Origin: a virus
Virus record (IMG/VR): IMGVR_UViG_3300008266_000015
Strand: one strand, 5' to 3'
DNA length: 64,000 bases
Both the position numbers and the translations under genes were made by a program. Each line of letters opens with the position of its first letter. Positions within the stretch are counted from its first letter, which is position 1. This document shows positions 6,884 to 27,232 of the stretch, in pieces. The notes under the pieces were generated by a model. It saw nothing but the letters and a program-made list of their open reading frames with translations, made no database searches and was not told the origin of the DNA.

Positions 6884-7059
6884 ACAACGATATTGAACGT
6901 AAAGAGTTTTGGGAAAAAGAGCTATCCAAAACTAAATCAAAAAAATGGGATGACAACGATTTAGAACAAGCATTTGTTTCGGCAAGAAAGTTATTTCAAA
7001 ACAAGTTACCACAATTTGAAACGTTTTATGACTATAAAAAGTCATTAGTTAATAAATAG
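6880..7059 (+). CDS. Hypothetical protein, 59 aa (not in ORF track)
   Basis: ATGA overlap with the upstream gene; stop is the TAG of repeat 7057. Confidence 0.6.
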   Translation: MNNDIERKEFWEKELSKTKSKKWDDNDLEQAFVSARKLFQNKLPQFETFYDYKKSLVNK

Positions 7060-7103
7060 GATTACAAGATCTATATCTGTATATTCAAGCAAATAAAAGT
7101 TAT

Positions 7104-7316
7104 ATGTTTAAATGGTTTAAAAAACAAGATAAGGACGAAAACAATACGGAAATGCTCGTATCAGAAATGGATGCGGTTGCAATAGCATTAGAACAGTCAC
7201 GTGAAGAAGGTTTAGATGTTGAGGTTGTAACATGGGCACTTCGATACATGAAGGAAAATCCATCACTCACCATATCGGAAGCAATTACAATGGGATACTA
7301 CGAGTGGGTTAAATAA
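7104..7316 (+). CDS. Hypothetical protein
   Basis: Directly behind repeat 7057. Confidence 0.65.
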   Translation: MFKWFKKQDKDENNTEMLVSEMDAVAIALEQSREEGLDVEVVTWALRYMKENPSLTISEAITMGYYEWVK

Positions 7317-7385
7317 CAGACCAAGTTGATATTTATAACGGAACAGGTTGTGTGAACAAGTTTACTAACTTAACACACTATTCCC

Positions 7386-7595
7386 ATGAAATATCTAATT
7401 ACTCTGCTATTGATATTTACTATATCGTGTAGTCAAGATTTCAACAAACCACGCTATCAGAAAATAATTAAAACACGACCTCACTGGCAACGGAAACAAA
7501 TTCCGTTTTACAGACAAGGAACATATCGTGATCGTAACGTGAAAAAACAAGCAAGACAGAAATTAATTCAACCGCCAACAATTAATATTAATTGA
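7386..7595 (+). CDS. Small basic lipoprotein
   Basis: Leader ending TISC; TATTTATA upstream. Confidence 0.5.
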   Translation: MKYLITLLLIFTISCSQDFNKPRYQKIIKTRPHWQRKQIPFYRQGTYRDRNVKKQARQKLIQPPTININ

Positions 7596-7654
7596 AAAAT
7601 TAGGATTACAGGATTTACATTTGTATATTCAAGCAACCTAAAAAAATAAAAGTT

Positions 7655-8467
7655 ATGTTAGAAAATTTGATTATTACACCTAAACGAGGTAGAGGTAGAC
7701 CAGCAAAAGACGCAACACAAACTATGTCAGCATTTAATCCTGAAGAAGTTAAACTAATCAGAGGCGAATCATTGAAATTCAATGAAGCACTATTTGTACC
7801 TTTCAAAACAGGTACCGAATTTGATCTAATTTTATCAACCGATGGTGGTTTAATGCCCGGCACATCGATGATGATTGCTGGTGGACCAGGATCAGGTAAG
7901 TCAACATTAGTAACAGATATGTTATCTAAGTTTACAAAGCAAGGTTTGAAATGCTTGTTAATACAAGGCGAAATGGATGAAATTGGGCATTACAAATATT
8001 GCCGAAGAATGCCTTCATTTGGTTGTGTTCAGACATTGTTTTTGAAAAACCACATGGATAACGTGAAAGAAACATTAGAATATGTTTTTAACTTAGGTTA
8101 CGACGTTATTGCAATTGATTCACTTGCGGAGGTATTAGCAATGTATCGCGATCAAAACGGTGGTTCAGCAAAACAAGCCGAATCATGGCTATTGAAATTA
8201 CAAGATTCAGTTAAAAAAGGAAACAACGCATTAGGTTATTATACATCGTTTGTTAATATTCAACAAATGACGAAAAGCGACGAGTTTGCGGGTTCAAACA
8301 GGTTAAAGCATATGATGGAAGCATATTGCGCAGTTGAACGTAGCAAAGATGGACTTGAACGTTCAATGCATTTCGAAAAGAATCGTGATTGCGATAAAGA
8401 TTACAAAATCTACTTTTCAATATATAAGGACGGAGTTCATTACGCTTTAAATCAAGCAGAAGAATAA
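7655..8467 (+). CDS. RecA-superfamily (RadA/Sms-like) ATPase with an N-terminal AT-hook
   Basis: GGLMPGT, Walker A GGPGSGKST, Walker B IAIDS, QMTK..FAGSNRLKHM, KNR; N-terminal KRGRGRP. Confidence 0.8.
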   Translation: MLENLIITPKRGRGRPAKDATQTMSAFNPEEVKLIRGESLKFNEALFVPFKTGTEFDLILSTDGGLMPGTSMMIAGGPGSGKSTLVTDMLSKFTKQGLKCLLIQGEMDEIGHYKYCRRMPSFGCVQTLFLKNHMDNVKETLEYVFNLGYDVIAIDSLAEVLAMYRDQNGGSAKQAESWLLKLQDSVKKGNNALGYYTSFVNIQQMTKSDEFAGSNRLKHMMEAYCAVERSKDGLERSMHFEKNRDCDKDYKIYFSIYKDGVHYALNQAEE

Positions 8468-8523
8468 AAACGGGGAGTACACGCTCCCCTTTCATATATT
8501 CAAGTAAATAAAAAAGATATATT

Positions 8524-9300: not shown

Positions 9301-9357
9301 AAATTAGGATTACAAAATCAATTATCATATATTTAATCAAACGAAAAAATAAAAGTT

Positions 9358-10158
9358 ATGCTAGATCTAAATTCAAACACATTCCTTAGTAAGGAGCAAA
9401 TTAAATCAAAAGCAAATTCGATTTTTGCTACTAAAGGTGCTGAAAACACCTCACAACACTATTCACACATTCCAACATTCAAAATCATTGAAGATATGGA
9501 ATTGTTAGGATGGAAAGTTTCTGATGTTAAAGAGGTTAAAGCGCGTAAAAACGCTGGATTCCAAAAACATTTAGTTGTATTTCGTAATGAGGAAATTGTT
9601 ATTGATGGTAAAGATGGAGACACAGTATTTCCACAAATCCTATTAACAAATAGTTCAGACGGAAAAAATGCATTTACATTCCGTGCCGGACTTTTCCGTC
9701 TTGTATGTGAGAATGGTTTAGTTATTTCAACACAGGATTTTGCTGATTTAAAAATCAGACATATGGGTTATGACTTTGAAAAGTTACAGAAAACCATTAC
9801 CAATATTGTTGAGAAACTTCCACTCACAGTTGAGTCAATGAATCGTTTTAAAGAAACACAATTGGAGGAGGAACAAATCCTACAATTCGCTAAAGATGCA
9901 CTTACAGTACGTTTCGGTGAAGAGGAAATGGAACGCATTACAATTGATTACACTACATTTATTCAACCAACACGTAGAGAAGATGCAGGAAATGACTTAT
10001 GGTCAGTGTTTAACCGCATTCAAGAACGAGTAATGGATGGAGATTTCCAATACAGTTATGCAGCCAAAATACGTAAAGCACGTAAAATCAAGAACTTCAA
10101 TCAAGATTTAGATTTGAATTCAAGACTATATGAGTTAGCTACCACATATTGCCTATAA
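9358..10158 (+). CDS. DUF932/DUF945-family protein, paralogue 2
   Basis: YSHIPT, NSSDG...AGLFRLVCENGL, RREDAGNDLWSVFNRIQE. Confidence 0.85.
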   Translation: MLDLNSNTFLSKEQIKSKANSIFATKGAENTSQHYSHIPTFKIIEDMELLGWKVSDVKEVKARKNAGFQKHLVVFRNEEIVIDGKDGDTVFPQILLTNSSDGKNAFTFRAGLFRLVCENGLVISTQDFADLKIRHMGYDFEKLQKTITNIVEKLPLTVESMNRFKETQLEEEQILQFAKDALTVRFGEEEMERITIDYTTFIQPTRREDAGNDLWSVFNRIQERVMDGDFQYSYAAKIRKARKIKNFNQDLDLNSRLYELATTYCL

Positions 10159-10168
10159 AAAATAAATT

Positions 10169-10197
10169 GGGGAGCTTGGACTACAAGTTCCCCTTTT
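10169..10197 (+). terminator. Terminator hairpin overlapping the promoter repeat (similar at 8472, 18489, 26034, 26382)
   Basis: GGGGAGCTTG-GACTA-CAAGTTCCCC-TTTT. Confidence 0.7.
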
Positions 10198-10219
10198 ATA
10201 TATTTAAAATAAAAAAGTT

Positions 10220-10651
10220 ATGGAAAAAGAATTTGTACCTTATGAACAAGCATTAGCTTTAAAAGAATTAGGATTTAATGAAGAGTGTTTAACATCTTAT
10301 CATTATAATGGAACATTAATAGATATGTGGAGTGCAGTGGGTTTTGTTACAAATAGTAGTTTAATAAACCCTGAACAATTTAATGCTAATAATAATTCTA
10401 AACTTTTAAAAGATTATATTGATAATCCTTTTACAGCAGCACCAACATTCTCACAAGCATTTAGATGGTTTAGAGAGAAGTATAATTTACATGGGATAGT
10501 TTCATATTACGGAAAAAATCAATGGGATATAGAACTACTTGATTACAAAGGAAACCAATTAGTTGAAATAGAAAACAACACATTTTGGACTTATGAAGAA
10601 GCAGAACTTGCTTGTTTAAATAAACTAATTGAAATTATAAAACAGAAATAA
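10220..10651 (+). CDS. Hypothetical phage protein (MEKEFVPYE type)
   Basis: ORF behind a repeat; ALALKELGF, APTFSQAFRWFREK and TYEEAELACL blocks. Confidence 0.7.
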   Translation: MEKEFVPYEQALALKELGFNEECLTSYHYNGTLIDMWSAVGFVTNSSLINPEQFNANNNSKLLKDYIDNPFTAAPTFSQAFRWFREKYNLHGIVSYYGKNQWDIELLDYKGNQLVEIENNTFWTYEEAELACLNKLIEIIKQK

Positions 10652-10982: not shown

Positions 10983-11317
10983 TGAGCGGAGGAGCATTTG
11001 ATTATAATCAATCTCGCATTCAATATATAATTGAAGGCATTGAAGAGGAAATTGAAAAAAATGGAAAGAAAATCGACTACGAACCGGGATACAAAAGATA
11101 TGAATGGGAATCAGAATACCATTACGAATATCCACCTGACATTATTGAGGAATTTAAAAATGGAATACGCATACTAAAACAAGCATATGTCTATGCTCAG
11201 CGAATTGATTGGCTACTATCAGGAGATGATAGAGAAGATTCATTTCGTAAACGATTGAAAGAGGATTTAGCACAATTAAACCCACCTACTTTTTGGGGTG
11301 AAGAAAGCGGATACTAG
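10982..11317 (+). CDS. Hypothetical phage protein
   Basis: Coupled ORF (MSGGAFDY start); stop lies in repeat 11315. Confidence 0.7.
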   Translation: MSGGAFDYNQSRIQYIIEGIEEEIEKNGKKIDYEPGYKRYEWESEYHYEYPPDIIEEFKNGIRILKQAYVYAQRIDWLLSGDDREDSFRKRLKEDLAQLNPPTFWGEESGY

Positions 11318-11360
11318 GATTACAAAATCTTTAGTTGTATATTTAGGTAAATAAAAAATT

Positions 11361-11726
11361 ATGGAAAGAATAGAAATTAATGGAGTATGGTATGTTAAAG
11401 AAGATACCATACAAAAAGAAAGTACTATATTAGAGCCTACTCATTTTGAAGGATACTCTGTAGAAAATGATGATTTTATTTTTGAAGCAACTATTATATT
11501 TAAAGATGATGGTACTCCTTATTATGGTATTACTATTGAATGTACTGATAAAAGATTCCCAGATAGGAATAATTGGAAAGTAGAACATTGGGATAATGAT
11601 AATTGGTTAAGAGGTATATTAAACAATAATCCTGATTCATGGAAAGAATTACCTGAAATGAGTAGTGGAGATATTCATTTTTTACAAACATTTTTACAAT
11701 ATTTAAAAGATAAAGAATGGTTATGA
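11361..11726 (+). CDS. Hypothetical protein
   Basis: Behind repeat 11315. Confidence 0.7.
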   Translation: MERIEINGVWYVKEDTIQKESTILEPTHFEGYSVENDDFIFEATIIFKDDGTPYYGITIECTDKRFPDRNNWKVEHWDNDNWLRGILNNNPDSWKELPEMSSGDIHFLQTFLQYLKDKEWL

Positions 11727-11971: not shown

Positions 11972-11972
11972 A

Positions 11973-12185: not shown

Positions 12186-12481
12186 CAGCAGACGAATTCA
12201 ACACCAAATATAAAGACTATTTAGAGGAAGGACATTACGGACTAGATATAGACATTCCATCCATAACTAAATATCTAGATGAAATATTTCAGGGCCTAAT
12301 TAAAATACCTGGATTTCAATATTCACAAATAAAAGATAAATACTCTAATTGTAGATTCTATACTAACTTACTTGAGGTATTAGGACATAAATTAGGAGCA
12401 ATTGTATCAAATGAGGTGGAACGTAGAGTTTCTATGATGATGGAAGTATATTATGATCACTTAAATTATAAGAAAGATTAG
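12182..12481 (+). CDS. Hypothetical phage protein
   Basis: ATGA coupling; QIKDKY..CRFY motif; stop lies in a repeat. Confidence 0.7.
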   Translation: MTADEFNTKYKDYLEEGHYGLDIDIPSITKYLDEIFQGLIKIPGFQYSQIKDKYSNCRFYTNLLEVLGHKLGAIVSNEVERRVSMMMEVYYDHLNYKKD

Positions 12482-12523
12482 GAATGCAAAATCTTTAATT
12501 GTATATTTAAAATAAAAAAGGTT

Positions 12524-12787
12524 ATGAACGATTGGTCAGCATTTAATGTAAAGTATTTAGCGGTACCATTTACTATGTTGGTATTTGGTGTAGTAATAGG
12601 ATTTGGTATATCCGATTCCAAAAAGAAACCAACTAAAAAATACCCAATAGAAGTACAAACTCATTGGTCAACAGATCAAGGTGCATCTTATCCAATTATG
12701 GAAGCAGATAGTGTTATAGGTGATACTATATACAAAGATGGTATTAGTATAGTAAATAAAAACATTTTAAATATAACATTTAAATGA
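12524..12787 (+). CDS. Membrane-anchored hypothetical protein
   Basis: N-terminal hydrophobic helix. Confidence 0.65.
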   Translation: MNDWSAFNVKYLAVPFTMLVFGVVIGFGISDSKKKPTKKYPIEVQTHWSTDQGASYPIMEADSVIGDTIYKDGISIVNKNILNITFK

Positions 12788-13715: not shown

Positions 13716-13716
13716 T

Positions 13717-14114: not shown

Positions 14115-14132
14115 AATTATAACAAATAAACT

Positions 14133-14498
14133 ATGGCAATATTCGGAAGTAGTTGGAAAGAAGATAGTGAAGACGAAATCAATATGTTTTCACATTGGAA
14201 AGATGATGAAGATGACTCTGGTCCTGAACCAAACGAGGCACTAAAAGTAGCTAAAGAAAGATATGATGCAATGCTTGATGCTAAACCACCTTACGTAAGT
14301 GATGATTTTCAAATTGGACCTGATGGTGCATATGAGGATGTAAGTGATTGGGATATAACATTAATGGATGGAATTGAGTACGAAAGTTGGGATGAAATAT
14401 ATGAAGACTATGTTGGTGAGGCAGATCTACACGAGTTTTTACAATGGCTAAAGGAAAATTTTCAAGTACCTAATAAACTAGGACCACAAAATTCTTAA
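14133..14498 (+). CDS. Very acidic hypothetical protein
   Basis: D/E-rich; DDFQIGPDGAYE. Confidence 0.7.
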   Translation: MAIFGSSWKEDSEDEINMFSHWKDDEDDSGPEPNEALKVAKERYDAMLDAKPPYVSDDFQIGPDGAYEDVSDWDITLMDGIEYESWDEIYEDYVGEADLHEFLQWLKENFQVPNKLGPQNS

Positions 14499-14522
14499 TT
14501 GTATATTTAAAATAAAAAAGTT

Positions 14523-14777
14523 ATGATATTTACAGGCAAATCAGCAGATGGTTCAGATGCAAAGGAAGTTGAAGGTATGTATATGCATCCCGATGGAGAA
14601 CAATGGTCAAATCAACCATGGATCATAACAAAAGAGGACAAAATGTATTGGGAAATACGTGACCATATTGATGGTAAACGATCACTACAAGACGAATACG
14701 ATTTAGTTAAAGCAAAGAAATCCACATTAAGTAGAGCACTACGTGATTTTTTAATTAAATTTATGGATGAGGGTTAA
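14523..14777 (+). CDS. Hypothetical protein
   Basis: Single-gene cassette between repeats. Confidence 0.7.
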   Translation: MIFTGKSADGSDAKEVEGMYMHPDGEQWSNQPWIITKEDKMYWEIRDHIDGKRSLQDEYDLVKAKKSTLSRALRDFLIKFMDEG

Positions 14778-14825
14778 TTAGGATTACAAAACCTTTAATT
14801 GTATATTTAAATAAAAATAAGAGTT

Positions 14826-15456
14826 ATGACGCCAAAAGAAAAAGCAGATGAATTATTTAGAAAAATGTATCAAGTACGTTCTGTAGCGGCAAGTGATATT
14901 ACTAAACATTTTGCAAAACAAAGTGCATTAATTGCAGTTGATGAGATTATAAAAGAATATGGAACATATTTCAAAGTAGAAGTAGAAGGTAAATATGTAT
15001 CTTATTGGCAACAAGTTAAACAAGAAATTGAGAAACTATGACACCAAAAGAAAAAGCAGATGATTTACTGAAGAAAATGCTAGGTAAAAATCCAAACATC
15101 CAAGACGGAGTTTCAGCCATAGATACTATACAAGCTAAACTATGCGCTTTAGTAGCAGTTGATGAAATAATGAGCACCACTGATGCGGAAGACCATATTA
15201 TTTTGTATAACTATTGGCAAAAAGTAAGAAATGAAATTGAGAAACTATGACACCAAAAGAAAAAGCAGAACAATTAGTACACACATACCGAATGCTATTT
15301 ATGGATGTTGGGGGCGATTATGGGGAGGAAATACTAGTGTCTGTATTATCTAAACAGTGTGCTTTAATAGCAGTTAAAGAAATAAGATACACCCATTACG
15401 ATGCAATAACTACAATGTGGTGGAATGATGTAGAACAAGAAATAAATAAGTTATGA
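14826..15456 (+). CDS. Three tandem MTPKEKA-family genes (14826-15041, 15038-15250, 15247-15456)
   Basis: Shared MTPKEKA / ALIAVDEI / W..V..EI.KL blocks; ATGA overlaps. Confidence 0.8.
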
Positions 15457-16342: not shown

Positions 16343-16398
16343 ACTAGGACTACAAAATCTTTTAACATATATTTAAACAACTTAAAAAAATAAAGGTT

Positions 16399-16614
16399 AT
16401 GACGGTACAAGAATTAAAAGAAATACTTGATGAAATGAACCCAGATATGGAAGTAAAATTTTCATACAGTTATGGAGACTATTGGCGAACCCAAGTAGCA
16501 GCAAACATTTCAGATGTCGATTATGGGTATGTAAGTTATAGTGACTACCACCAAATGGATAAGGTATCTGAAGATGAAAATGAAGATACTAAGTATGTAG
16601 TTTTACTAAGTTAA
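16399..16614 (+). CDS. Hypothetical protein (MTVQELKEIL)
   Basis: Single-gene cassette. Confidence 0.7.
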   Translation: MTVQELKEILDEMNPDMEVKFSYSYGDYWRTQVAANISDVDYGYVSYSDYHQMDKVSEDENEDTKYVVLLS

Positions 16615-16673
16615 TTTGTTAGGATTACAAAATCTGTTAATGTATATTTAATCAACTTAAAAAAATAAAGGTT

Positions 16674-16898
16674 ATGAACGGATTAACACAATCAGAATTC
16701 GAAATTTTGCTTAAACTAAAGCAACTAAAACAAAACAAAAAGTACATTGCTTTAAAACTACACCCTCCAATTGGAAACAGTACCATTCAGAAAGAAAACA
16801 ATCGGATGTTTATCAATGAAGGCCGAGATGGAAAATGGGAAGACATCTCAGAGAGTTTCTATGATATAGTAGTAGGAATTTACGATTCACGTTCTTAA
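16674..16898 (+). CDS. Hypothetical protein
   Basis: Behind repeat 16620. Confidence 0.65.
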   Translation: MNGLTQSEFEILLKLKQLKQNKKYIALKLHPPIGNSTIQKENNRMFINEGRDGKWEDISESFYDIVVGIYDSRS

Positions 16899-17234: not shown

Positions 17235-17285
17235 GATTACAAGATTTACAAACGTATATTTAATCAACTTAAAAAAATAAAAGTT

Positions 17286-18478
17286 ATGAAAAACGAAAAA
17301 ACAGAACGCATTGAAAGTCTTATAGATCTATCAGCACTTGCTTGGTTCAATACAGCAGCAAACACAATTGTTGTGGATATGATGAATGAAGGATGGGAGT
17401 ATAGTGATGCAAGAGAATATCTATTTGATAAAATTGATGAAATCATTGAAGCACATAAAAGACAAGATCGATTGGAAAATAAATTCTCCCCACTAATTGG
17501 AAAAAAATGTATTGTAATTGATGAGGTAATAGAGAAAAATAATGTAAAAATACATACAATTAGTGGAATTGGAGAAAATGGTGGATTGTGTTTTGAAGAT
17601 TACAATGGGGAAACTATTTTTTGTTTTGAATATGATGAAGACTTATTTGTAGAAGGATACAAAGCATGGATTCATCCAGATGAAGTATCTATTCAACTAA
17701 TAGATTAGGATTACAAAGTTTACGTTCATTTATTTAAATAAAAAAATAAAGGTTATGAAAAAAACATCTCAATCAATAGATGGAACATCGTTCCACAATG
17801 TAGTAGTTAAATGTTCATTATCAACCCTAACAAAAGTATTAGGCAATCCCGATTGTTCAGGAAATGATGGTGAGAATAAGATCAATTTTGAATGGGAAAT
17901 GGAAACAAATGACGGAGATGTATTTACAGTATATGACTGGAAGGAATATAGATCATTGAATGAAAATGAACTAATCGAATGGCACATTGGTGGAACAAGT
18001 AGGAGTATAACTGAACAAGCCGCTCGTGAAATTAGGGATGCAATAGCAAAAATCTAAAGTGTTAGGATTACAAGATTTATAAACGTATATTTAATCAACT
18101 TAAAAAACATAACTTATGACTGAATTAGAAAATTTAAAAATCGAGCTATTTAATCTTGTTGAACGTGTTAGTGCGCTATCAACTAAAAATGAAGGAACAT
18201 TTTCATTCACAAAAGAACAACTACTAAGCTATTCAAAGTTTCTAATTGATGAAGCGGTTGAAAGCATAACAACCGGTATTAAAAATGATATAACTGAAGA
18301 TTCGTTAGATGAAGTAATTGAATTAGAAATGGGTTATAATAGAGATATACGAGTTACAATTGATGAAAGAGGATTCCATAGCCAAATAGTTTCAGTGATT
18401 GAAGATTCAGTTGATTCAAACATAGAGGATTCAGTTGCTAGCGCTTTGGAACATGTGTTTCCAACCACTCAAGATTAA
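17286..18478 (+). CDS. Three single-gene cassettes, hypothetical (17286-17708, 17755-18057, 18116-18478)
   Basis: Each is preceded by the promoter repeat and an A-rich leader. Confidence 0.7.
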
Positions 18479-18535
18479 AATAAATAAAAGGGTAGTTCAT
18501 TAGGACTACCCTATTTTTATTTGTATATTTACAGT

Positions 18536-18954
18536 ATGAAAGAAGATAAGAAGATAAATGGATTAAGTGAACGTCACATTGCACAAATAGTACGACGTAA
18601 AATGATTCAACGCTTCAAACCATCAGCAAAAGTATATAAACGCAACAAAAACAAAAACACAGAGCTATGAGACAACTAATCGGAAAATTTGAAGTAGTGG
18701 ATTCAATGGGGAATCTTAAGACACTAAAAGTATTTACAAACCGCGAAGAAGGTACTGTGGGGTTCTCCTTAACATCCAAATCAGGGACTTCGTTTTCAAT
18801 CAGCAATATGCAATGTGGATGGAGAGGACCACACCTACCTGATAACACATATGAATATCCAACTAACAAAGCACTAATGAAAGCAGTGAAAGAGGCTGTA
18901 AATGGAGGTGTTTGTAAAGTACAAGAAGAGAAATTATTTATTGATGTAATTTAA
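18536..18954 (+). CDS. Small basic 44-aa ORF (18536-18670, not in track) coupled to hypothetical 18667-18954
   Basis: ATG behind repeat 18501; ATGA overlap. Confidence 0.6.
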
Positions 18955-19185
18955 AAATAATGGTTATGAAAGAATTAATGTATAACCCAAGTACTGGTGA
19001 TTTATTAGCAACTAAAGCTAAAACAGATGGGAAAGTGTATCAAAGTTACTTAACTAAAGGATATATTAAAATTGGTTGGGTTGATGGGTTTAATGTAGTG
19101 GTTGGAGGAATTGGAGTTAAATTATAATTTATTAGGATTACAAGTTAAATTAATGTATATTCAATTAACTTAAAAAATAAAGATT

Positions 19186-19425
19186 ATGAAAGAAACACTT
19201 GAAGAAGCTGCTGAAGAATTTATAAAAGGTTGGGGTGGTTTAACTGACTCTAAAAATTCATTTATTGAAGGTGCTAAATGGCAAGCTGAAAGAATGTATA
19301 GTGAGGAAGATTTAATTAGTTTTGCACACTTTTATTTCACAGAAGAATTTAATTCAACAATGCAAACTTCTAAATCAACAGATAAAATTTTACAAGAATG
19401 GTTTGAACAATTTAAAAAGAAATAA
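19186..19425 (+). CDS. ETLEEAA-family modular protein, copy 3
   Basis: Shared constant blocks. Confidence 0.8.
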   Translation: MKETLEEAAEEFIKGWGGLTDSKNSFIEGAKWQAERMYSEEDLISFAHFYFTEEFNSTMQTSKSTDKILQEWFEQFKKK

Positions 19426-19426: not shown

Positions 19427-20493
19427 ATGAAAGTATTTAGATTTACAACAGAGGTACAATCCATTAAAACAATACAATATATTATTGAAGCTGAAAATAA
19501 AGAAGAAGCAGCTAAAATACTCCAAAGCGGAAGTGAACGTGATGAAGGTGAAGAGATTGATGAAGATATCTATTGGGGAACAGAAACAATTATAGAAAGT
19601 AAACTAATTGAGGAACTATGAACGAACTAAAAATACATGGCTACTATCAGTGGTCCAATGCTTGTGGTTATGGAGTGATCCTTTCCGATTGTGGAGACTC
19701 AGCAAAGCTGGTACTTGAAAATCAATCAACAACTGATTGGTTAGAAATTGAATATGTTTTTAACGAGGACACTGATGGATTTGATCCAATCATTGATCCA
19801 AGTAGATACAACGTGCCTTTAAATTTGGTAATGCGAGCTTACTAGGACTACAAAGTTTATTACTGTATATTTAAACAACTTAAAAAACGTAAAAAGATGA
19901 AAAAATCAAATTCAAGTGTGTTTGTAAACACAACTATTACGAAACAATTCCCTAACGGACCAAAAGTAACTGCTGAATTTCAAACCATTGTTTGTTTGAA
20001 TAAAAGTGATGATTGGGTTATTGATTGTATTGAGCCAATGGATATTAATGAAATTGAAATGATGGGAAAAACAATCACCGATTATGAAAATAAACGTAAT
20101 ATAATTGAACATTTCAAATTAATGGGAGTTGATTTATGGGACGAAGTTGAAACGGATATGCAGAAAATCATTGATGCGAATAGTGATGCAGTTACGTTTG
20201 TAAAAGAACAAACCGGAATTATATTACCAACAAAACAAAGCAAACCAAATGATGTTGTTGAATTAACAAGACAGGAATTGGAATATGTAATAATTATGAA
20301 TGATCTAAAACAGCAATTCGGTTCATTAGGTTACTACAACGATAAACGAAAAACAACACGTCGCATCAAGATATATTCAGGTCCAAAAGAAGCAATTCAA
20401 AGATACATGTATAAAAAATATCCACATATCAAAACATATTTCAATGTTGGATATCCATGGTCAAGTGGATTATGTTTTAGGTTACCACTTTGA
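19427..20493 (+). CDS. Hypothetical genes 19427-19621 (start corrected), 19618-19845 and 19897-20493
   Basis: Coupled or repeat-preceded ORFs. Confidence 0.7.
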
Positions 20494-20500
20494 TAATAAT

Positions 20501-20524
20501 GGGGACGTAAACGTCCCCTTTTTT
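20501..20524 (+). terminator. Rho-independent terminator
   Basis: GGGGACG-TAAA-CGTCCCC-TTTTTT. Confidence 0.8.
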
Positions 20525-20730
20525 ATTTTACTAGGACTACAAGGTTTACATTCGTATATTTAAGTATAAGAAAAAAAAGATATGAAAACTAAAACGAAAC
20601 AACAGATACTAGCTGAGATGCTACAAAAAGAATTAAACTCAACAGAACAAATGTGGGAAGAAGGTAAATCACATGCCTTCATAATTGGATATTTAAAAGG
20701 TCTAATCAAAATAACCATTTCAGAACTAAA

Positions 20731-21039
20731 ATGATATATCTACCTATAGCAACTCAACATATCCCACCTGCCATTGCAAATACAAGTCAAGGTAGATACG
20801 CTATAATGGATGGTAAATGGTACGAAATTGGACAAACCATTACATTGGAGTTTGTTAGGAAACATTGGAAACCAAAACCAATTGAAACTAATTCAATTAA
20901 AACATTTGCTATTAAGAGCTCGAATGGAAAAGAACAGTACACCGTTACTGTGAATGGGAAATATTGGCAATGTAATTGTCCGAGTTGGAAAAACCCATGT
21001 AAACACATTGGTATAGCTAAAGCTCAAATTAAGGAATAG
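20731..21039 (+). CDS. SWIM zinc-finger protein
   Basis: YTV...WQCNCP....CKHI. Confidence 0.8.
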   Translation: MIYLPIATQHIPPAIANTSQGRYAIMDGKWYEIGQTITLEFVRKHWKPKPIETNSIKTFAIKSSNGKEQYTVTVNGKYWQCNCPSWKNPCKHIGIAKAQIKE

Positions 21040-21089
21040 GACTACAGAATTTACAGTTGTATATTTAAGTAAACGAAAAAATAAAAGTT

Positions 21090-22098
21090 ATGAAAAGCAA
21101 ATTCACTCAGGTTTCATCAAATGAAATCAAACTAGAATTAATCCATAATTATTTGACTCAATGTGATCGTTCATTTCTATTAATAGAGCAAAATAGAGGT
21201 GTGTATAGTATAGGTAGGGCTGTTCAACTATATCAGTTGGATGGGCTTAAGAAAGAACACATCAAGGAATTAGCGTGGACAAAGGATGATAATCATGGTG
21301 GAATGAGAGACTCAGATGCACACCATAAAGGACTCACAACATTAGATGGTTGTAAAAGTGTAGCATTGGATTATTTGGAAAAAATATTAGGAGTAGAAAT
21401 TGAATAGGATTACAAGTTAAACAGTTGTATATTTAATTAACTTAAAAAACAAAAGTTATGAAAACGACAGAACTAAAACAAGGATACTCAATCTTTGGGA
21501 ACAAAGGAAATGTATGGAGCAATACAGCTCATATCTACAAAAGTGGAACAGGGAACTTATGTGGTACACCTGCACTATCAAATAACTGGGCTAGGATTGA
21601 ACAAGTAGAGCATGTTGGATGTCCGGAATGTTTAGAAAAGTATAAATTAGAAAACTAAATATATGTACATAGCAATTAATAAAGCAAACCATTTGGAATT
21701 TCATAGTTTCGAATGGACGGAAGATGACAGGTTGATTGTGAATGGAGAAGAAGTAAAACCTGAAGAATGGGATATAGTAGAGGTATCAATGGTATATCAG
21801 GATTATTGTTGTTAAAAAAATAAAGGTTATGACAAGAAAACAATTCCACAAAGCAATCAACAAAGATGTATATGAATATATGAATCAACACTATCCCGAA
21901 TTCGACATTGATGATAGTGAAGGATATGGTCGTGTGTATTTTGTGGATACCACATCCTCTAAACCATGGGATGATAGTATAGAATACCATCAATCAAGAC
22001 ATGATTTGTGTACACTGAATGGAGCTAGTGATAAGGTAAAAGCCGTTGAGCAAGAACTTGAGAGTTGGATAAACGCTTTAATTAAACAATATCAATAG
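21090..22098 (+). CDS. Hypothetical cassettes 21090-21407, 21458-21658 (H..LCG..CPEC, metal-binding) and 21829-22098
   Basis: Repeat-delimited ORFs. Confidence 0.7.
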
Positions 22099-22148
22099 GA
22101 TTACAAGGTTTATAAGCGTATATTTAGTCAACCTAAAAAATAAAAGTT

Positions 22149-22373
22149 ATGAAAACAAATGTAAACTTAGAAATGTATCAAAACATTGATAGCATTTCAG
22201 AAAAACTAACAACAAGGATTACACAGTTAGAACTACTAATTGATGAATATTGTGAGAGATTCGTAACTTCACATGAAGATTTAGAACAAGTTACTAAATT
22301 CAACGAAATGTTAAATGACTTGTATGAGGATCTAGATTCAATTACTGAGGTTAAAAGCGTGTTATATAATTAA
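22149..22373 (+). CDS. Acidic helical protein, paralogue of 23649-23873
   Basis: MKTNVNLEMY...MLNDLYEDL...VLYN, same length. Confidence 0.75.
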   Translation: MKTNVNLEMYQNIDSISEKLTTRITQLELLIDEYCERFVTSHEDLEQVTKFNEMLNDLYEDLDSITEVKSVLYN

Positions 22374-22427
22374 TTAGGACTACAAATTAAACAGTTGTAT
22401 ATTTAATTAACTTAAAAAACATAAAAA

Positions 22428-23414
22428 ATGAAAATAACTAAAGCAAATAAGCTCCCCGGAACACAATATTTAGAACTATTAGATGTAGCAAAGTATTTAC
22501 GTGCAGTGTACGTTAGTGCCTTGACAGAAGTAGAAAAACAACATTACAGAAGAGTATATACTGAAGCTAGAACAAATGGATTACGTAGTAAAATGGTAGG
22601 TGCTACCTCGTTTAAAGCAATGGATAAGGTAATGAAAGTAGCTCAAAATGAATATCCACATTTGGACATTAAAATTGCAAAGAATAAACCAATGTATTCA
22701 TTTGCATTACATGGTGTTAATATATTTGTTAAAGTAAAAAAATAGGAATACCCTTTAATTAATCATATATTTAAGTAAACGAAAAAATAAGAGTTATGAA
22801 AATAAAAGACCTAATTAAACACCTCGAAACATTAGATCAAGAAAAAGAACTAGTTGTGATTGCAACGGACCCAACAGATTGGGACTATGGTTTAGTTGTA
22901 AATGAAACAACAATTAGATTGGAGGAGATCTGGCCTTCTGAGGAGAATGGATTAGAAGAAGAATTAGGTGAACCTGATTACCATCATGATAAAGGAATTG
23001 ATTGTTATGTTATTAGATTAGATTGTTAGGATTACAAAATAAACAATAGTATATTTAAATAAAAATAAGATATGACAATATTATTAATTTGGTTAGGTGG
23101 ATTTCTATTAGGAGCTGGGATCACATTATTTATTACAAACAAAAAGCAACAATAATATTCAGAATATGAAAATATATCAAGTATATAGTGGGGAAGAGGA
23201 TAAACATGGATTCCAGAGAGAATACTACATAGCAACATATGTTAGTAAGGAAAAAGCATTACAACATTGTGAACGTATAGTGGAGGAAACTCCATTGTAT
23301 GGGGATAAATTAGAGGAGGTAGAAGGGAGTTGGGGAAAATGTTGGGATGCTATTGGGTGGGGTAGAGTAACGATTTGTGCTTTATATGAGAGGGAAGTGA
23401 ATGTGGAGGTATGA
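22428..23414 (+). CDS. Hypothetical cassettes 22428-22745, 22796-23029 and 23166-23414
   Basis: Repeat-delimited ORFs. Confidence 0.7.
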
Positions 23415-23419
23415 CAAGT

Positions 23420-23580: not shown

Positions 23581-23648
23581 AATACAGTAAAACTTGCGGG
23601 GATTACATGGTTTTTTAACATATATTTAACTCAATAAATAAAGAAAAT

Positions 23649-23873
23649 ATGAAAACAGATGTTAATTTAGATATGTACAGAAACGTTGATATAATTTCAG
23701 CGGAACTAAAAATAGCTATTGATGCTCTTGAACAAGATGTTGATGATTTCTGTTCCAATTTTGTTAAAACACAAGAGGACTTGCAACTAGTTTCATTGTT
23801 CCAGTCCATGTTGAATGATTTATACAATGATTTGGAAAACATTAACAACATAAGAGGTGTATTATACAACTAG
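23649..23873 (+). CDS. Acidic helical protein, paralogue of 22149-22373
   Basis: MKTDVNLDMY...MLNDLYNDL...VLYN. Confidence 0.75.
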   Translation: MKTDVNLDMYRNVDIISAELKIAIDALEQDVDDFCSNFVKTQEDLQLVSLFQSMLNDLYNDLENINNIRGVLYN

Positions 23874-23950
23874 GAATACAAAAAATACGTTCGTATATTT
23901 ATCTCATAAGAAAAGCATTTAAAAACGTTTAATTAATTGATTAAGCATAT

Positions 23951-24023
23951 AGTCAGGTGGCGGAATGGATGGGCAACGTCAACTAATTAATAGATACAGG
24001 TTCGAATCCTGTCCTGACTACCA
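23951..24023 (+). ncRNA. tRNA-like element t6 (73 nt, encoded CCA, truncated anticodon arm)
   Basis: Same acceptor and T-arm, ends ACCA; only 16 nt between D-arm and T-arm; behind repeat 23871. Confidence 0.8.
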
Positions 24024-24470
24024 AATGTTGGCTGAAAAGTTAGGCTTTTGTTTCTATATAGGGAAGATGACTAAGAAACAGGAACTAGAGTCTATTAGAG
24101 GTACAATCATCAGTATATCTCTTACAACATTATATAGTTCTTTGCATTTTTACTTACCTTCACCATATGTATAATGGAACACAAAAGGGATCCTCACAGT
24201 AGGACAACGAGAAGTGAATGCTAGTCAGGACTGCTCTCAACCAAGTAGTGCTCAAAAACGCGCTCTTTACACATATTAGTTACAACAAAAGCATTAATGC
24301 ACCCGGAGTAATATACCGGTTTTTAAATTTTGACAAAAATGTTCCCGCCTCTAGTCGACCCAATTAGATGAGCAAATAACATGAGTTAATGATACAGCAA
24401 AACAATGTGAGTTAAATTTATACATAAAGCTGGTTGATAATTAGGTTGACTGGCTACCTTACTGTTCAAA
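24024..24470 (+). ncRNA. Candidate structured non-coding region C
   Basis: No credible ORF; AATGTTG/CAACATT, AGAGGTA/TATCTCT, CCGG/CCGG and AGTCGACCCAATTA/TAATTAGGTTGACT helices. Confidence 0.4.
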
Positions 24471-24529
24471 TACTAGGATTACATAACATATATTCGTATA
24501 TTTAAATAAACAAAAAAACAAAAACATCT

Positions 24530-24631
24530 ATGAAAAAAGCAATTCAGAGTCCAGTTATTTTAATTCCAACTTGGTTTATTACCATTTATTATGTTGGATT
24601 AGTATTAAGTATTATTTTTACTCAAAGTTAG
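24530..24631 (+). CDS. 33-aa membrane peptide (not in track)
   Basis: Behind repeat 24474; hydrophobic; stop is the TAG of repeat 24629. Confidence 0.55.
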   Translation: MKKAIQSPVILIPTWFITIYYVGLVLSIIFTQS

Positions 24632-24664
24632 GATTCCAGAATTTTAGTTCGTATATTAATTAAA

Positions 24665-24878
24665 TAAGTAACCGGCCCCAGTAACGGGGGATAAGTTAAA
24701 GTGAAAAGGACGGTTCAAACAGGGGAGCCATTTAGGGACAAGAGGATGAAATAAGCCCGCCCTCGGCTCACCCGATTTAAAGGTGGACATAATAGCCACC
24801 ACGCGAAGGCCGGCCAACTCATAGAGTCGTCGAGCCACTTAAACCATGGAGGTCCACAACGTTGGGCCTCCATTTATT
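24665..24878 (+). ncRNA. Candidate GC-rich structured ncRNA D with its own promoter and terminator
   Basis: Behind repeat 24629; CCCC/GGGG, GAGCC/GGCTC, GAGG/CCTC and GGTGG/CCACC helices; ends in an ATGGAGGTCCA/TGGGCCTCCAT hairpin plus TT. Confidence 0.65.
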
Positions 24879-24934
24879 TATTAGGATTACACGTTTTATA
24901 ATTGTATATTTAATTAACCTAAAAAATTAAAAAT

Positions 24935-25198
24935 ATGAAAACTAAAATAAATTGCTTCGGTCAAACAATTAAGATTAATTCCCAACAAGAACTAGTTGAG
25001 TTTCTGACTAATAATCCATTCAAAACAGAGAAACAAATATGTGCTGAACTATGGAATTCAGAACGAGAAAAAAAACATGCCGACCTGATTAGACGTGCTT
25101 TATTTAAGGGTACAATTGGTAGGGTTAGAGTTAAAACAGGAACTAGAAATAGAATTCATTACTATGTTTCGTCTGAGAGACAAACATATAATTTTTAA
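24935..25198 (+). CDS. Hypothetical protein, possibly winged-helix-like
   Basis: Single-gene cassette; basic. Confidence 0.6.
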   Translation: MKTKINCFGQTIKINSQQELVEFLTNNPFKTEKQICAELWNSEREKKHADLIRRALFKGTIGRVRVKTGTRNRIHYYVSSERQTYNF

Positions 25199-25256
25199 AA
25201 ATAATAGGATTACATATTAAATAACTGTATATTCAAGTAACTTAAAAAACATAAAT

Positions 25257-25430
25257 ATGAAAAAGATAGTTTTAATGATTATGACTGCATTGATGATATC
25301 TGCGGTTGCGAACGCAAATACAACAGATAGAAACAAGAAAAGAAAGAAACATAAAACACATAAAAGCAGCCATCATGGTTGGAAAAATGTTTCAATAGGG
25401 CGAACATGTAATAAGAAAAAACGTCATTAA
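25257..25430 (+). CDS. Small secreted basic peptide (not in track)
   Basis: MKKIVLMIMTALMISAVANA signal peptide then a K/R/H-rich tail; hairpin at 25460-25481. Confidence 0.55.
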   Translation: MKKIVLMIMTALMISAVANANTTDRNKKRKKHKTHKSSHHGWKNVSIGRTCNKKKRH

Positions 25431-25673
25431 GATTATTTATTAGTAGTAGTTTATTAATGGGGCGGATGCTTAAGTCCGCCCATTATTATTTTCAGTTACA
25501 ATATTAGGATTACAAGTTATATAGTTGTATATTTAAGTATAAGAAAAATAAATAATTCGTTCTTTAAATAAAAATAAGTAAAATAAATTAATTAGGATTA
25601 CAAGATATACAGTTGTATATTTAAAACATAATAAAAATAAATAATTAAAAACTAAAAACAAAAAATAAAGGTT

Positions 25674-26012
25674 ATGAAAAACGAAAATCAAAACATCGAA
25701 ACAAAACAATTAGGTAGACCTGTTAATCCGAATTCAGTTCGTCAACAACGATTAGCAGAGTTAGAAGCAAAACGTAATAACGGAGAGTTAAAACGAGGAC
25801 GTCCGGTAAACGGGACATCAGTACGTCAAGCTAGATTAGCTGAGTTAGCAGCGAAAGCTGAATTAAACGGAGGCGTTATTAAAAGAGGTCGTCCCTCAAA
25901 TGGCGAATCAGAACGTCAAAAACGATTAGCTGAGCGTGCTGCTAAAGCAGCGAGTGGAATTGAAATTAAACGCGGTCGACCAGCAATGGTTAAAGCAGAA
26001 GTTAGTAAGTAA
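25674..26012 (+). CDS. Multi-AT-hook DNA-binding protein
   Basis: Four GRP motifs (LGRP, then KRGRP x3) separated by SVRQ.RLAE helices. Confidence 0.75.
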   Translation: MKNENQNIETKQLGRPVNPNSVRQQRLAELEAKRNNGELKRGRPVNGTSVRQARLAELAAKAELNGGVIKRGRPSNGESERQKRLAERAAKAASGIEIKRGRPAMVKAEVSK

Positions 26013-26121
26013 GTTGTGTATGTTTTAAGTAATAGGGTAGTCCGTTAGGACTACCTTATTTTATCTCATATATTTAAATATAATAAAAAAAGATAATTTA
26101 AACTTTTAAAAACTTAAAACT

Positions 26122-27232
26122 ATGATGAACTGGACAGAATTAAGACCTAAATTAAGAGCTGAGTTTAAAGATAATTTTACTTTTTATAATGATACTTATA
26201 AAAGTGGAAATAAGAGAGTGAAAATATGTTGTAATGTATTAGATGCGAATGTAGTAAAAGCATTTATTTTAGAACAAGATTCTGAATTAGATGTAAAAAT
26301 CGAAACATTATACCCCCCGTTTATTAGTGTAGGAATTGATTATGTAATGATTAGATATAACAAGATATAAATTAGTTAAATGGGTAGGTCATTAGGCCTA
26401 CCCTATTATATTTAGTATATTTAATTAACTTAAAAAACGAAACATATGAAATCAAAGCAAATATTATTAAACATGTTAGCCGTTGTTATAACGTTTGAAT
26501 ACATTGGAGTAACCGCAGCATGTGTTATGTACCCGAGCTGGGGAGCATTGGTAATGAATATTGCTTGTGCTGTAGCATGTGTTGTAACTGTACATAATGC
26601 CCATTTCTATAAATACCAAACGCGTTAGGACTACACATTAGTATATTGTATATTCAATCAACCAATAAAACATAAACATATGAGTACTCAAATTACATTC
26701 CCTAAACCATTTCAGTGGTTCATTAAAATAGGAATATCAATAGCTGGTATAGTGGGTTTAATAAATGTGGAGATTGCCTCACATAAGAGTGGATGTGAGT
26801 TTTTCATAATGGTGGGTATTGAATTGGTTACCTTATGTTATGGCTTGTGGCTTACTAGATTTATCGATGAATAGGACTACATAGTATATGCTCGTATATT
26901 AAATTAACTTAAAAAACGTAAAATATATGAAAATCGAATTAAGAAAATTAAACGTACTCGAGTATTTACAATTTGAACGCGATGAACGTATTCCTGAGTT
27001 AATCGAATCGTATGATGGCGATGTAGAATATGTCATTAATGAGATATGGGGTCCATTAACTACAGTATTGGACGGGAAAACAGATAATGACTTAATGGAC
27101 ATTATTAATTCCATCATGGATAAAGATACGTATGAGGACGAGTTTAATGCGTTTAAATTACATATAGGATCCGACGATATAGAAGAGATAGACTGCTGGC
27201 TTGTATGGGAAATGATTTGTAACCCATTATAA
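26122..27232 (+). CDS. Hypothetical cassettes 26122-26370, 26446-26628 (membrane), 26680-26874 (membrane) and 26927-27232 (acidic)
   Basis: Each lies behind a promoter repeat. Confidence 0.7.

Follow-up and report, generated by a model that had tools for sequence, protein, structure and literature searches.

The question raised by this locus is why one short sequence recurs almost unchanged ahead of small gene after small gene, and whether, as the first-pass annotation proposed, it turns the region into an integron-like capture array in which any ORF landing between repeats is expressed and terminated. In the window, that is, the 64,000-nucleotide stretch of IMG/VR record IMGVR_UViG_3300008266_000015 analysed here, the motif TAGGAYTAC-N14-TATATTTAA was found 40 times with up to 3 mismatches, always on the + strand, against 0.81 copies expected and a maximum of 4 matches in 100 shuffles. 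All 40 copies are intergenic and oriented as the genes are, and the stretch 7057-26872 contains 35 of them, spaced ~580 bp apart on average; at a limit of 2 mismatches the count was 34 copies (spacing mean 600 bp, median 453 bp). These values bear out the earlier estimate of about 36 repeats in 7057-26903, recurring about every 0.55 kb. Across the whole 104,954-bp record, 36 copies were detected with up to 1 mismatch and none on the reverse strand, and a reversed control pattern gave no match at that threshold. The repeat unit comprises ~57 nt of near-identical promoter-type and leader sequence ahead of ~35 small genes, and it hardly occurs between 30 and 62 kb of the window. Comparison of units at their non-consensus positions revealed 23 pairs with at most 6 of 28 differences, against 1.9 expected, pointing to sub-families.

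The setting of the units is a hyperplastic region, ahead of ORFans: a 20-kb run of small genes holds 35 of the 40 copies (Table 1). In a Pfam scan of 20 cargo proteins, 15 had no match and one more had marginal matches only. The exact motif is carried by ~35 IMG/VR contigs, and relatives of one cargo gene are encoded in more than 500 metagenome stretches. The empty and RNA-only cassettes described previously were recovered: two units 56 nt apart with no ORF between them at 25505, and promoter-headed, ORF-less stretches from 3366, 23871 and 24629. The empty cassette resembles an untidy deletion and not a clean unit-to-unit exchange. The tRNA-like RNAs lie between genes of the same genome.

Promoters of the Bacteroidota primary sigma factor follow the consensus -33 TTTG / -7 TAnnTTTG, with TTTG ~19-21 nt upstream of the -7 element; Flavobacterium uses a 'TAAAA' ribosome site, and in F. 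johnsoniae promoters G-5 is 'nearly invariant' and the -33 element weak (PMC6847099, PMC2483708). In the units, (T)TAG occupies the -33 TTTG place, 20 nt before the TAnnTTT -7 box; it is one substitution away from TTTG, and exact TTTG stands there in relatives. The -7 box, TATATTTA(A), contains T-12, A-11, T-8, T-7 and T-6, and G-5 of the TAHHTTTG element is replaced by A in essentially all unit copies, so that the suggested likeness to the Bacteroidota -7 element holds for TAnnTTT and breaks down at G-5. The 9-bp box shows ~2 bits per position, a far stronger conservation than that of the host -33 element; 3' of the motif, conservation extends into the A-rich leader AAAAAAtAAAAgTTATG. The start codon is located 21-22 nt past the motif in 17 of 35 units, and an ATG 10-24 nt past it in 32 of the 35 units with a gene start within 30 nt; at unit 18489 the ATG follows 3 nt after the -7 box, so that its message may be leaderless. 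The -33/-7 layout and the conserved leader support the view, in line with the first annotation, that the units look like Bacteroidota promoters, each with its own leader. A separate motif, ATATTTATAATAAA, was found 12 times ahead of structural genes against 1.1 expected and is, as predicted from sequence, a promoter class distinct from the early unit.

The upstream box differs between phage lineages (GGAYTAC here; GGCTTAC or TTGC elsewhere), while the -7 box is constant. L012 and L032 carry TTTGGCTTAC or TTAGGCTTAC (TTTGG/TTAGG variants) at the same distance from the -7 box, and in L076 and Flavobacterium phage immuto a plain TTG(C) box precedes the same TATATTTA. These variants show the GGAYTAC box as a putative extension of the -33 TTTG region that is specific to each lineage. 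The closest cultured phage is vB_FspM_immuto (Immutovirus, NC_055915.1), and a Flavobacterium-type host may be inferred solely from this relative, at 48% amino-acid identity. Like the window phage, immuto has ~24 units (A/T)AG-TTGC-N19-TATATTTA-GGTATCAATAATTAAAAC...ATG before small hypothetical genes, with the same layout and -7 box and with TAG abutting the box in 10 of 24 units; its upstream box and leader are different, and just 3 of its TAGs serve as the stop of the gene upstream. A literature search found no paper describing the immuto units.

The TAG of the motif doubles as the stop codon of the upstream gene in the units so marked in Table 1. All 17 overlaps listed earlier, 15 in the array and 2 outlying, proved correct, and 2 further ones lie upstream of the window in the same record. 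Motif-type TAGs make up 20 of the 30 TAG stops of the whole record, 19 of these at scanned units, and in the proposed comparison TAG accounted for 19 of the 69 early-block stops versus 11 of 118 elsewhere. Relative to the frame of the upstream ORF, TAG boxes of non-redundant relatives are distributed 68:14:19, in frame first (p=3e-12), and those of this phage 18:8:8, whereas TTGG boxes give 22:18:25; the dual use of TAG is therefore non-random. Its cause is most likely genome compaction. The stop would be a by-product of tight packing: as TAG would be the last stop before the promoter, an ORF without a stop of its own would survive only if in frame with it, and the state would then persist. 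The claim that the repeat terminates any ORF landing between copies is not supported, since TAG closes one frame of three and ordinary AT-rich sequence closes the other two; frame 1 is shut in no more than 26 of 39 units, and all three frames are usually closed ahead of the next ATG.

Comparison with a close relative, L089 (75-95% nt identity, 25 units), revealed cassettes lost, gained or translocated with respect to the window. Inside the array, long alignment blocks have 19 ends, and 15 of these fall at -15 to +60 of a unit start, which is no excess over what joints between genes would give, because about three quarters of the junctions carry a unit. At least two L089 promoter units are chimeric. 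Unit 7185, at which cassette 26046-26392 is cleanly absent, consists of the 5' part of window unit 26046 and the 3' part of unit 26393, and in unit 4540 the 5' side of window unit 24882 runs into the leader and gene that the window has at 21829. The crossover point varies by joint, lying in the leader A-run, the spacer or the box edge. Joints with L089 also occur at promoter-less junctions (window 21659, 27241 and 28385-28871), and in sister lineages with fewer units most block ends lie far from any unit when units are defined by the strict pattern only. L205, L218, L239 and L232, with 69-77% nt identity in the adjacent core block, have the same motif but share no more than one cargo gene, the rest of the cargo being replaced almost completely, and L099, L032, L012 and L112 hold the same cargo genes in differing orders. 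The synteny comparison that the first-pass annotation recommended thus gave a divided answer, with joints inside units, at least two of which are chimeric, in L089 on one side and promoter-less joints and most sister-lineage ends away from strictly defined units on the other.

Table 1. Promoter-leader units and cassettes of the window; L089 and L099 are relatives.
Positions	Strand	Feature
7057..26929	+	Hyperplastic early-gene array: 35 promoter-leader units, ~59 small genes (mostly ORFans), few RNA-only stretches
2490..2564	+	Unit, TGGG variant, before gene 2562-2807
3366..3397	+	Unit heading tRNA-like RNAs and small genes; stretch from 3366 promoter-headed, without ORF
7057..7106	+	Unit; TAG = stop of gene 6880-7059
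7601..7657	+	Unit before KaiC/RecA-like ATPase gene 7655-8467
9305..9360	+	Unit before DUF932 gene 9358-10158
10169..10222	+	Terminator hairpin, box (TTGG variant) in loop, and unit
11315..11363	+	Unit; TAG = stop of 10982-11317
12479..12526	+	Unit; TAG = stop of 12182-12481
14479..14525	+	Unit; upstream gene extends 17 nt into unit
14779..14828	+	Unit
16345..16401	+	Unit; L099 homology stops at its ATG
16620..16676	+	Unit
17232..17288	+	Unit; TAG = stop of 16911-17234
17706..17757	+	Unit; TAG = stop of 17286-17708
18063..18118	+	Unit; 2/28 variable positions differ from unit 17232
18489..18538	+	Terminator hairpin (3' arm = box) and unit; ATG 3 nt past -7 box
19133..19188	+	Unit
19843..19899	+	Unit; TAG = stop of 19618-19845
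20501..20584	+	Terminator hairpin, then unit 20532
21037..21092	+	Unit; TAG = stop of 20731-21039; L089 homology stops at its ATG
21405..21460	+	Unit; TAG = stop of 21090-21407
22096..22151	+	Unit; TAG = stop of 21829-22098
22375..22430	+	Unit; 1/28 variable positions differs from unit 21405
22743..22798	+	Unit; TAG = stop of 22428-22745
23027..23074	+	Unit; TAG = stop of 22796-23029
23598..23651	+	Unit, GGGG variant; G+C-rich non-coding stretch 23415-23597 precedes
23871..24473	+	Unit (TAG = stop of 23649-23873) and RNA-only stretch with tRNA-like RNA 23951-24020
24474..24532	+	Unit before 33-aa membrane-type ORF 24530-24631
24629..24881	+	Unit (TAG = stop of 24530-24631), ~200-nt structured RNA without ORF, terminator 24846-24873
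24882..24937	+	Unit
25205..25259	+	Unit before 57-aa signal-peptide ORF 25257-25430; terminator 25460-25481
25505..25592	+	Empty cassette: unit, 21 nt leader, ~35-nt remnant like 3' end of L089 gene 6550-6720
25593..25676	+	Unit, long leader, before AT-hook (RGRP-repeat) gene 25674-26012
26036..26124	+	Hairpin (3' arm = box) and unit 26046; source of 5' half of chimeric L089 unit
26382..26448	+	Hairpin (3' arm = box) and unit 26393; source of 3' half of chimeric L089 unit
26626..26682	+	Unit; TAG = stop of 26446-26628
26872..26929	+	Last unit of array; TAG = stop of 26680-26874
28142..28187	+	Weak outlying unit, 3 mismatches; TAG = stop of 27527-28144
49756..49796	+	Weak outlying unit, late region, 3 mismatches; TAG = a stop
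62798..62835	+	Weak outlying unit, 3 mismatches; strong hairpin precedes

The explanation we favour, with a probability of roughly 70%, is that in each repeat an early promoter is followed by a short, A-rich 5' leader and by the codon at which a small early gene starts, with the promoter read by the host polymerase and the repeat serving at the same time as recombination homology. The reader would be the RNA polymerase of the host carrying the primary sigma factor of Bacteroidota, and transcription would start at an A ~5 nt past the -7 box; translation would be driven by the leader TAAA(A/G)GTTATG and would need no Shine-Dalgarno sequence. As 40-50 copies share 57 nt of near-identity, we propose that they offer portable homology to the recombination system of the phage; crossovers within units would delete, insert and move cassettes and leave genes unbroken, and for this reason the region may be hyperplastic while the units stay constant.

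Three findings together allow for a recognition factor specific to the phage: G-5 is replaced by A, the box is strongly conserved yet differs between lineages, and in 596 Gb of cellular genomes the composite motif is no commoner than chance. The promoters might require an activator or sigma-remodelling factor, of phage or host, at the lineage-specific box, like MotA/AsiA at T4 middle promoters, and would then be delayed-early or middle promoters. The ~2 bits per position over 9 bp, the variation of the box next to an unchanging -7 box, the weak -33 element of F. johnsoniae and the chance-level motif frequency favour such a dependence. However, no MotA C-terminal domain or sigma-70 region 2 was found in this record or the complete immuto genome, although a novel factor would escape this search, and no T7-type RNA polymerase was found in either by a search run without a positive control. 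Moreover, the canonical TTTG falls on the first bases of the box and is exact in relatives, T4 early promoters likewise have a phage-specific extended consensus and are read by the unmodified host polymerase, and a unit before nearly every small array gene is typical of immediate-early regions; we therefore regard an activator as rather unlikely. A more specific version, in which the 9-bp box is the site of a putative phage specificity factor retargeting the Flavobacterium RNA polymerase and TAG is kept as a built-in stop, appears distinctly improbable. Such a factor would be the functional counterpart of T4 MotA/AsiA in Bacteroidota phages, the variants TAGGAYTAC, T(T/A)GGCTTAC and AG-TTGC would co-evolve with it in each lineage, and the stop would allow a unit to be inserted after any ORF.

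A hairpin of -15 kcal/mol or lower is present in 13 of 50 units (~26%), and 8 terminator-like sites of the + strand lie at or adjoining units in 7001-27000. Where a G+C-rich hairpin with a T-run lies upstream of or overlaps the box, in about a quarter of units, the unit would act as terminator plus promoter. These hairpins and the tRNA-like RNAs between genes could also suit a signal acting on RNA, by processing or termination, through which one long early transcript is divided into separate messages. Such a role is very unlikely: most units are unstructured beyond control sequence (median fold -7.1 versus -7.8 kcal/mol), and the conserved blocks stand exactly at -33/-7 distances as A+T-rich DNA boxes and not as paired RNA. 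Integron-like gene capture, with the repeat as the site of a site-specific enzyme and TAG selected to terminate captured ORFs, would account for the cassette architecture with its empty and RNA-only members, for the strong enrichment of in-frame TAG and for the three frames usually closed before the next ATG. Yet crossover points differ among joints, joints also occur at unit-less sites, TAG shuts a single frame, the geometry of the repeat is that of a promoter and each cassette has its own; neither integrase nor attC is needed for the data, and we give this proposal hardly any credence. Integron arrays likewise consist of many small same-orientation cassettes, including an empty one, and there the likeness ends: an integron relies on an integrase, on attC sites and on a single promoter (Pc) placed at one of its ends, whereas here each cassette is headed by a promoter-type unit and the joints have no fixed nucleotide.

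Early promoter-plus-leader units with a role in recombination have their closest parallel in the promoter-early stem-loops (PeSLs) of the T4-type phages RB49/phi1, T4/PST and KVP40/nt-1, which number ~50 per genome in RB49 and phi1 (Arbiol et al. 2010, PMC2839356; Comeau et al. 2014, PMC4122927). Like the units as interpreted here, PeSLs are tens of near-identical early-promoter copies that cluster in hyperplastic regions just ahead of small ORFans, with conservation reaching from the stop codon on the upstream side to the start codon that follows; some are composite terminator/promoters whose stem-loop overlaps the upstream promoter box, and indels between close relatives are bounded by them and leave chimeric units. 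Indels of this kind were found here in L089; the pattern did not hold in the sister lineages as judged by the strict unit definition. A stem-loop, part of the PeSL definition, was not found in every unit but in 13 of 50, the rest folding like the control. The proposed likeness holds for the hyperplastic shuffling region and the joints at units, and falls short in the stem-loop, present in only about a quarter of units. Furthermore, the units follow Bacteroidota -33/-7 grammar instead of sigma-70 -35/-10, have an A-rich leader and no Shine-Dalgarno sequence, and hold the upstream stop codon inside the promoter box in ~40% of cases, whereas in PeSLs it lies in an AT-rich stretch before the box. 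Promoter and terminator activity and mini-circles have been demonstrated experimentally for PeSLs; in the units, promoter and terminator activity are predicted from sequence.

Phage T4 has ~40 strong early promoters of extended consensus, used by the host polymerase immediately after infection. As with the units, their phage-specific consensus is much stronger than that of the host, many copies stand ahead of early genes that are small and non-essential, and elsewhere in the genome late promoters have a simple A+T-rich motif of their own. The units differ in host phylum and sigma factor and in including the leader and start context in the repeat.

No new mechanism is revealed, and the integron analogy is to be dropped; the array is a hyperplastic, probably early region working like the PeSL arrays of T4-type phages. 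The picture of the mobile regulatory cassette extends from T4-type phages of Proteobacteria to widespread freshwater phages related to a Flavobacterium phage, a group with a promoter and translation grammar unlike that of T4-type phages. The unit illustrates neatly how three promoter bases can come to serve as a stop codon when a genome is compacted, and its sharply defined, probably very strong promoter-plus-leader consensus is a candidate expression tool for Flavobacteria.

Our analysis of the repeat revealed 40 copies of TAGGAYTAC-N14-TATATTTAA (<=3 mismatches) in the window, all of them on the + strand (40/40), against a mean of 0.81 and a maximum of 4 in dinucleotide-preserving shuffles, which bears out the dense array claimed by the first-pass annotation. 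Copies falling in window 7057-26872 make up 35 of the 40. Across the whole record of 104,954 bp, of which the window corresponds to bases 35030-99029, 36 copies were found at <=1 mismatch, and none on the other strand or with the reversed control pattern. The repeat is genuine and clearly bounded; the conserved stretch comprises ~57 nt and extends from 2-3 nt 5' of the TAG through to the start codon. GenBank phages gave no match to the array by megablast. Between the window and the stored genome record there are 13 single-position differences: 12 cluster at 46116-46300 and the other is at 56084.

The primary-sigma promoter consensus of Bacteroidota consists of TTTG at -33 and TAnnTTTG at -7; in Flavobacterium johnsoniae the -7 element is TAHHTTTG, with T-12, A-11, T-8, T-7, T-6 and G-5, and the ribosome site is an A-rich 'TAAAA' with no Shine-Dalgarno sequence (PMC2483708, PMC6847099). 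The base 5' of the TAG in our units is mostly T, so that the box starts TTAG, one substitution from TTTG, and lies 20 nt 5' of TATATTTA. The ambiguity of TTAG versus TTTG is lessened by the box variants of related viruses: contigs L012 and L032 show either TTTGGCTTAC or TTAGGCTTAC at equal distance from the -7 box, the box of contig L076 is GTTG, and some 24 units reading (A/T)AG-TTGC-N19-TATATTTA-GGTATCAATAATTAAAAC...ATG are present in the nearest phage in culture, Flavobacterium phage vB_FspM_immuto (48% identity in the baseplate wedge protein). The leader consensus AAAAAAtAAAAgTTATG is more highly conserved than the matching stretch 5' of genes lacking a unit. Going by F. johnsoniae, the first transcribed base would be an A ~5 nt 3' of the -7 box. 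At window 18501-18538 and 62798-62835 the ATG lies just 3 nt 3' of the -7 box, which places the predicted transcript start on or beside the start codon, and these messages may be leaderless or their start codons mis-called. Upstream of gene 21829 (window 21795-21830), cAGGATTAt runs straight into a leader of the typical kind (AAAAAAATAAAGGTTATG), possibly marking a unit deprived of its spacer and -7 box, and the orthologue in the close relative L089 has a full unit.

Reading the units as -35/-10 promoters was rejected, since a sigma-70 scan gave fewer sites than shuffled sequence. Simple recognition by the host is opposed by an A in the unit where the host G-5 is near-invariant, by a 9-bp box that is conserved far beyond host -33 elements and varies among phage lineages, and by the distribution of the composite motif, which gave 20 single hits in 596 Gb of cellular genomes, the chance level, yet occurs on about 35 viral contigs. 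On the same search, made with the whole motif, the possibility of a host regulator site borrowed by the phage was also discarded. Sigma-70 region 2 and the MotA C-terminal domain were found neither in the record (~65% complete) nor in the complete immuto genome, and nor was a T7-type polymerase, in a search run without a positive control; a novel factor would escape such domain searches.

Structural genes are preceded by a different motif, ATATTTATAATAAA (12 matches at <=1 mismatch versus 1.1 expected), so the unit marks a promoter class of its own, presumably early. ATATTTATAATAAA resembles TATAAATA of T4 and is a candidate late promoter; three further matches coincide with the -7 box and leader of early units.

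Matches to the candidate late promoter motif in the window
Motif	Window position	Strand	Location
ATATTTATAATAAA	278	+	10-25 nt 5' of structural/late-region gene start
ATATTTATAATAAA	27502	+	10-25 nt 5' of structural/late-region gene start
ATATTTATAATAAA	33110	+	10-25 nt 5' of structural/late-region gene start
ATATTTATAATAAA	36408	+	10-25 nt 5' of structural/late-region gene start
ATATTTATAATAAA	42824	+	10-25 nt 5' of structural/late-region gene start
ATATTTATAATAAA	46680	+	10-25 nt 5' of structural/late-region gene start
ATATTTATAATAAA	56673	+	10-25 nt 5' of structural/late-region gene start
ATATTTATAATAAA	60235	+	10-25 nt 5' of structural/late-region gene start

Genes were predicted with a simple codon-usage model and the stop of the upstream gene was then placed for each copy. 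The TAG of the motif serves as this stop in 19 of 50 copies in the record, and every such position listed by the first-pass annotation was recovered; 11 further genes have their own stop 4-9 nt 5' of the motif, and just 3 genes extend into the motif. Of the 30 TAG stops in the record, 20 are of the motif type, 19 of which fall at scanned units, and TAG frequency, a comparison that had been proposed earlier, is 19/69 stops in the early block versus 11/118 elsewhere. Recoding of TAG was rejected, as the triplet terminates 30 genes and ORFs are intact under table 11. Among non-redundant relatives, TAGG boxes show a frame ratio of 68:14:19 to the upstream ORF (p = 3e-12) and supply the stop in 47/101 cases; for TTGG boxes the ratio is 22:18:25. 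The TAGG boxes in the record's genome give 18:8:8 (p = 0.05), and the in-frame bias was found again in separate contigs (L089 15:2:1, L099 12:2:2, L019 5:0:1). The TAG is nevertheless kept in the 24 of 43 TAG-type units of the record where it is not a stop, which argues that the triplet is conserved chiefly as part of the box. Compaction is the simplest account of the in-frame bias: deletion of a gene's own stop would be tolerated only if the ORF enters the TAG in frame, and the TAG-terminated state would allow no further shortening. Selection of the TAG as a built-in stop is a conceivable alternative. The proposal that the unit terminates any ORF by design did not hold: the TAG shuts one frame; a TAA in the -7 box or spacer shuts a second in 36/39 units, and the third is shut before the next ATG in only 26/39.

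Eight terminator-like hairpins lie directly 5' of units or overlap them on the + strand of window 7001-27000. Hairpins of -15 kcal/mol or stronger accompany 13 of the 50 units of the whole record, and in units 10176, 18501, 26046 and 26393, among others, the box forms the hairpin loop or 3' arm. For the other units, folding is no better than that of control sequence, so that composite terminator/promoters would represent a minority and most units would not be of this kind; the idea that ordinary units share a conserved hairpin in their box and spacer was rejected on the same comparison. The promoter-headed stretches without an ORF (RNA-only cassettes) claimed earlier are real, and no known family accounts for them, as Rfam returned only tRNA matches on 1-30000. 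Window 24661-24881, a G+C-rich, ORF-less stretch of ~200 nt (folding z = -2.7), is flanked by a unit and a strong terminator. It shares 75% identity with L089, the indel lengths do not follow multiples of three and the stems are preserved; it is a candidate small RNA without Rfam match. A second G+C-rich non-coding stretch, window 23415-23597, contains GGGG and CCCC runs and is 93% identical in L089, exceeding the conservation of the flanking genes.

Cassette shuffling was followed in L089 (IMGVR_UViG_3300046010_015343), which carries 25 units, spans window 20024-30214 and shows 75-95% nt identity in shared blocks. Window gene 26122-26370 is among those missing from L089, two promoter-plus-gene units that L089 has and the window lacks occupy the site of the window's empty cassette, and gene 21829-22098 is among the cassettes that have moved: without its own promoter in the window, it stands behind a unit (4540) in L089. 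In the empty cassette, another earlier claim that proved real, a unit and 21 nt of leader are followed by a ~35-nt remnant resembling a gene 3' end, which looks like an untidy deletion. The 5' part of L089 unit 7185 (hairpin, box, spacer and -7 box) matches window unit 26046 and its 3' part, from the leader A-run on, matches window unit 26393, with 347 bp cleanly lost; the 5' side of L089 unit 4540 corresponds to window unit 24882, and its leader and gene to window 21829. Judged from these alignments, both joints are chimeric units. The expectation that breakpoints fall in the repeats is supported by these two units and by long alignment block ends within the array, 15/19 of which lie between 15 nt before and 60 nt after the start of a unit, a number that alone cannot separate recombination in units from survival of only between-gene joints, since about three quarters of array gene junctions carry a unit. 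Against an exclusive role of the units stand joints at promoter-less junctions (window 21659, 27241 and 28385-28871) and the sister lineages: in the pairs L012/L126/L129 and L037/L054/L057, taken as independent replicates, most block ends are far from units as detected with a strict pattern in lineages carrying fewer of them, and joints at units are unsupported there. Non-consensus positions split the units into sub-families (23 pairs with <=6/28 differences versus 1.9 expected), and the most similar pairs are often adjacent in the array, which fits duplication or exchange among units. A 168-aa gene at window 28370-28876, with no unit close by, is precisely missing in L089; homology stops 15 nt after its ATG and restarts 2 nt before the ATG of the next gene, and its absence may reflect recombination between similar 5' ends of adjoining genes.

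A search for close relatives found none with window gene 17286-17708 and only the L089 phage again with gene 25674-26012; contigs L090 and L091 are identical to L089. The contigs L009/L097 and L098, 84-87% identical to the window at the nt level on the phosphoesterase gene, were rejected for joint mapping as different phages with higher G+C and no units. Homologues of window genes 16127, 15453, 14288 and 10982 occur in L100 (Ga0181348_1016267, 800-2800) and L097/L098 at 80-88% nt identity, in changed order and tightly packed without units in these other phage lineages, which indicates that these cargo genes pass between phage groups. L099 has 20 units, yet just 2-3 genes in common with the window at the nt level, and shared cargo genes vary in order among L099, L032, L012 and L112. 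The adjacent core block (window about 29000-34800) is present at 69-77% nt identity in contigs L205, L218, L239 and L232, which also possess arrays of the unit motif; of the window's 59 cargo genes, these contigs carry only the AT-hook protein gene 25674-26012. Its 112-aa product contains four repeats, each with RGRP (AT-hook-like), is the sole array cargo conserved across all core-block contigs (these four, L099, L032 and L094) and is probably a DNA-binding early protein. The cargo consists mostly of ORFans, apart from two DUF932 proteins, a KaiC/RecA-like ATPase, a metallophosphoesterase and this AT-hook repeat protein. Three tandem paralogues of ~70 aa with overlapping stop and start codons (14826, 15038 and 15247, within window 14826-15456) have one to three homologous copies in L012, L099, L112 and L198.

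In T4-type phages, the repeats known as promoter-early stem-loops (PeSLs) each combine an early sigma-70 promoter with a stem-loop. They number ~50 per genome, their conservation covers about 100 bp between the stop codon of the preceding gene and the start codon of the following one, and they gather in hyperplastic regions before ORFans and bound indels between close relatives (PMC2839356, PMC4122927). Our array would act like PeSL arrays but differs in its promoter and translation grammar, in the lack of the stem-loop in three quarters of the units, and in the stop codon within the promoter box of 40% of the units, unlike PeSLs. No account of such units was found in the literature on phages of Flavobacteria or other Bacteroidota. 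On sequence grounds, the favoured reading of the repeat is an array of cassettes, each with a putative early promoter and its leader, within a hyperplastic region.
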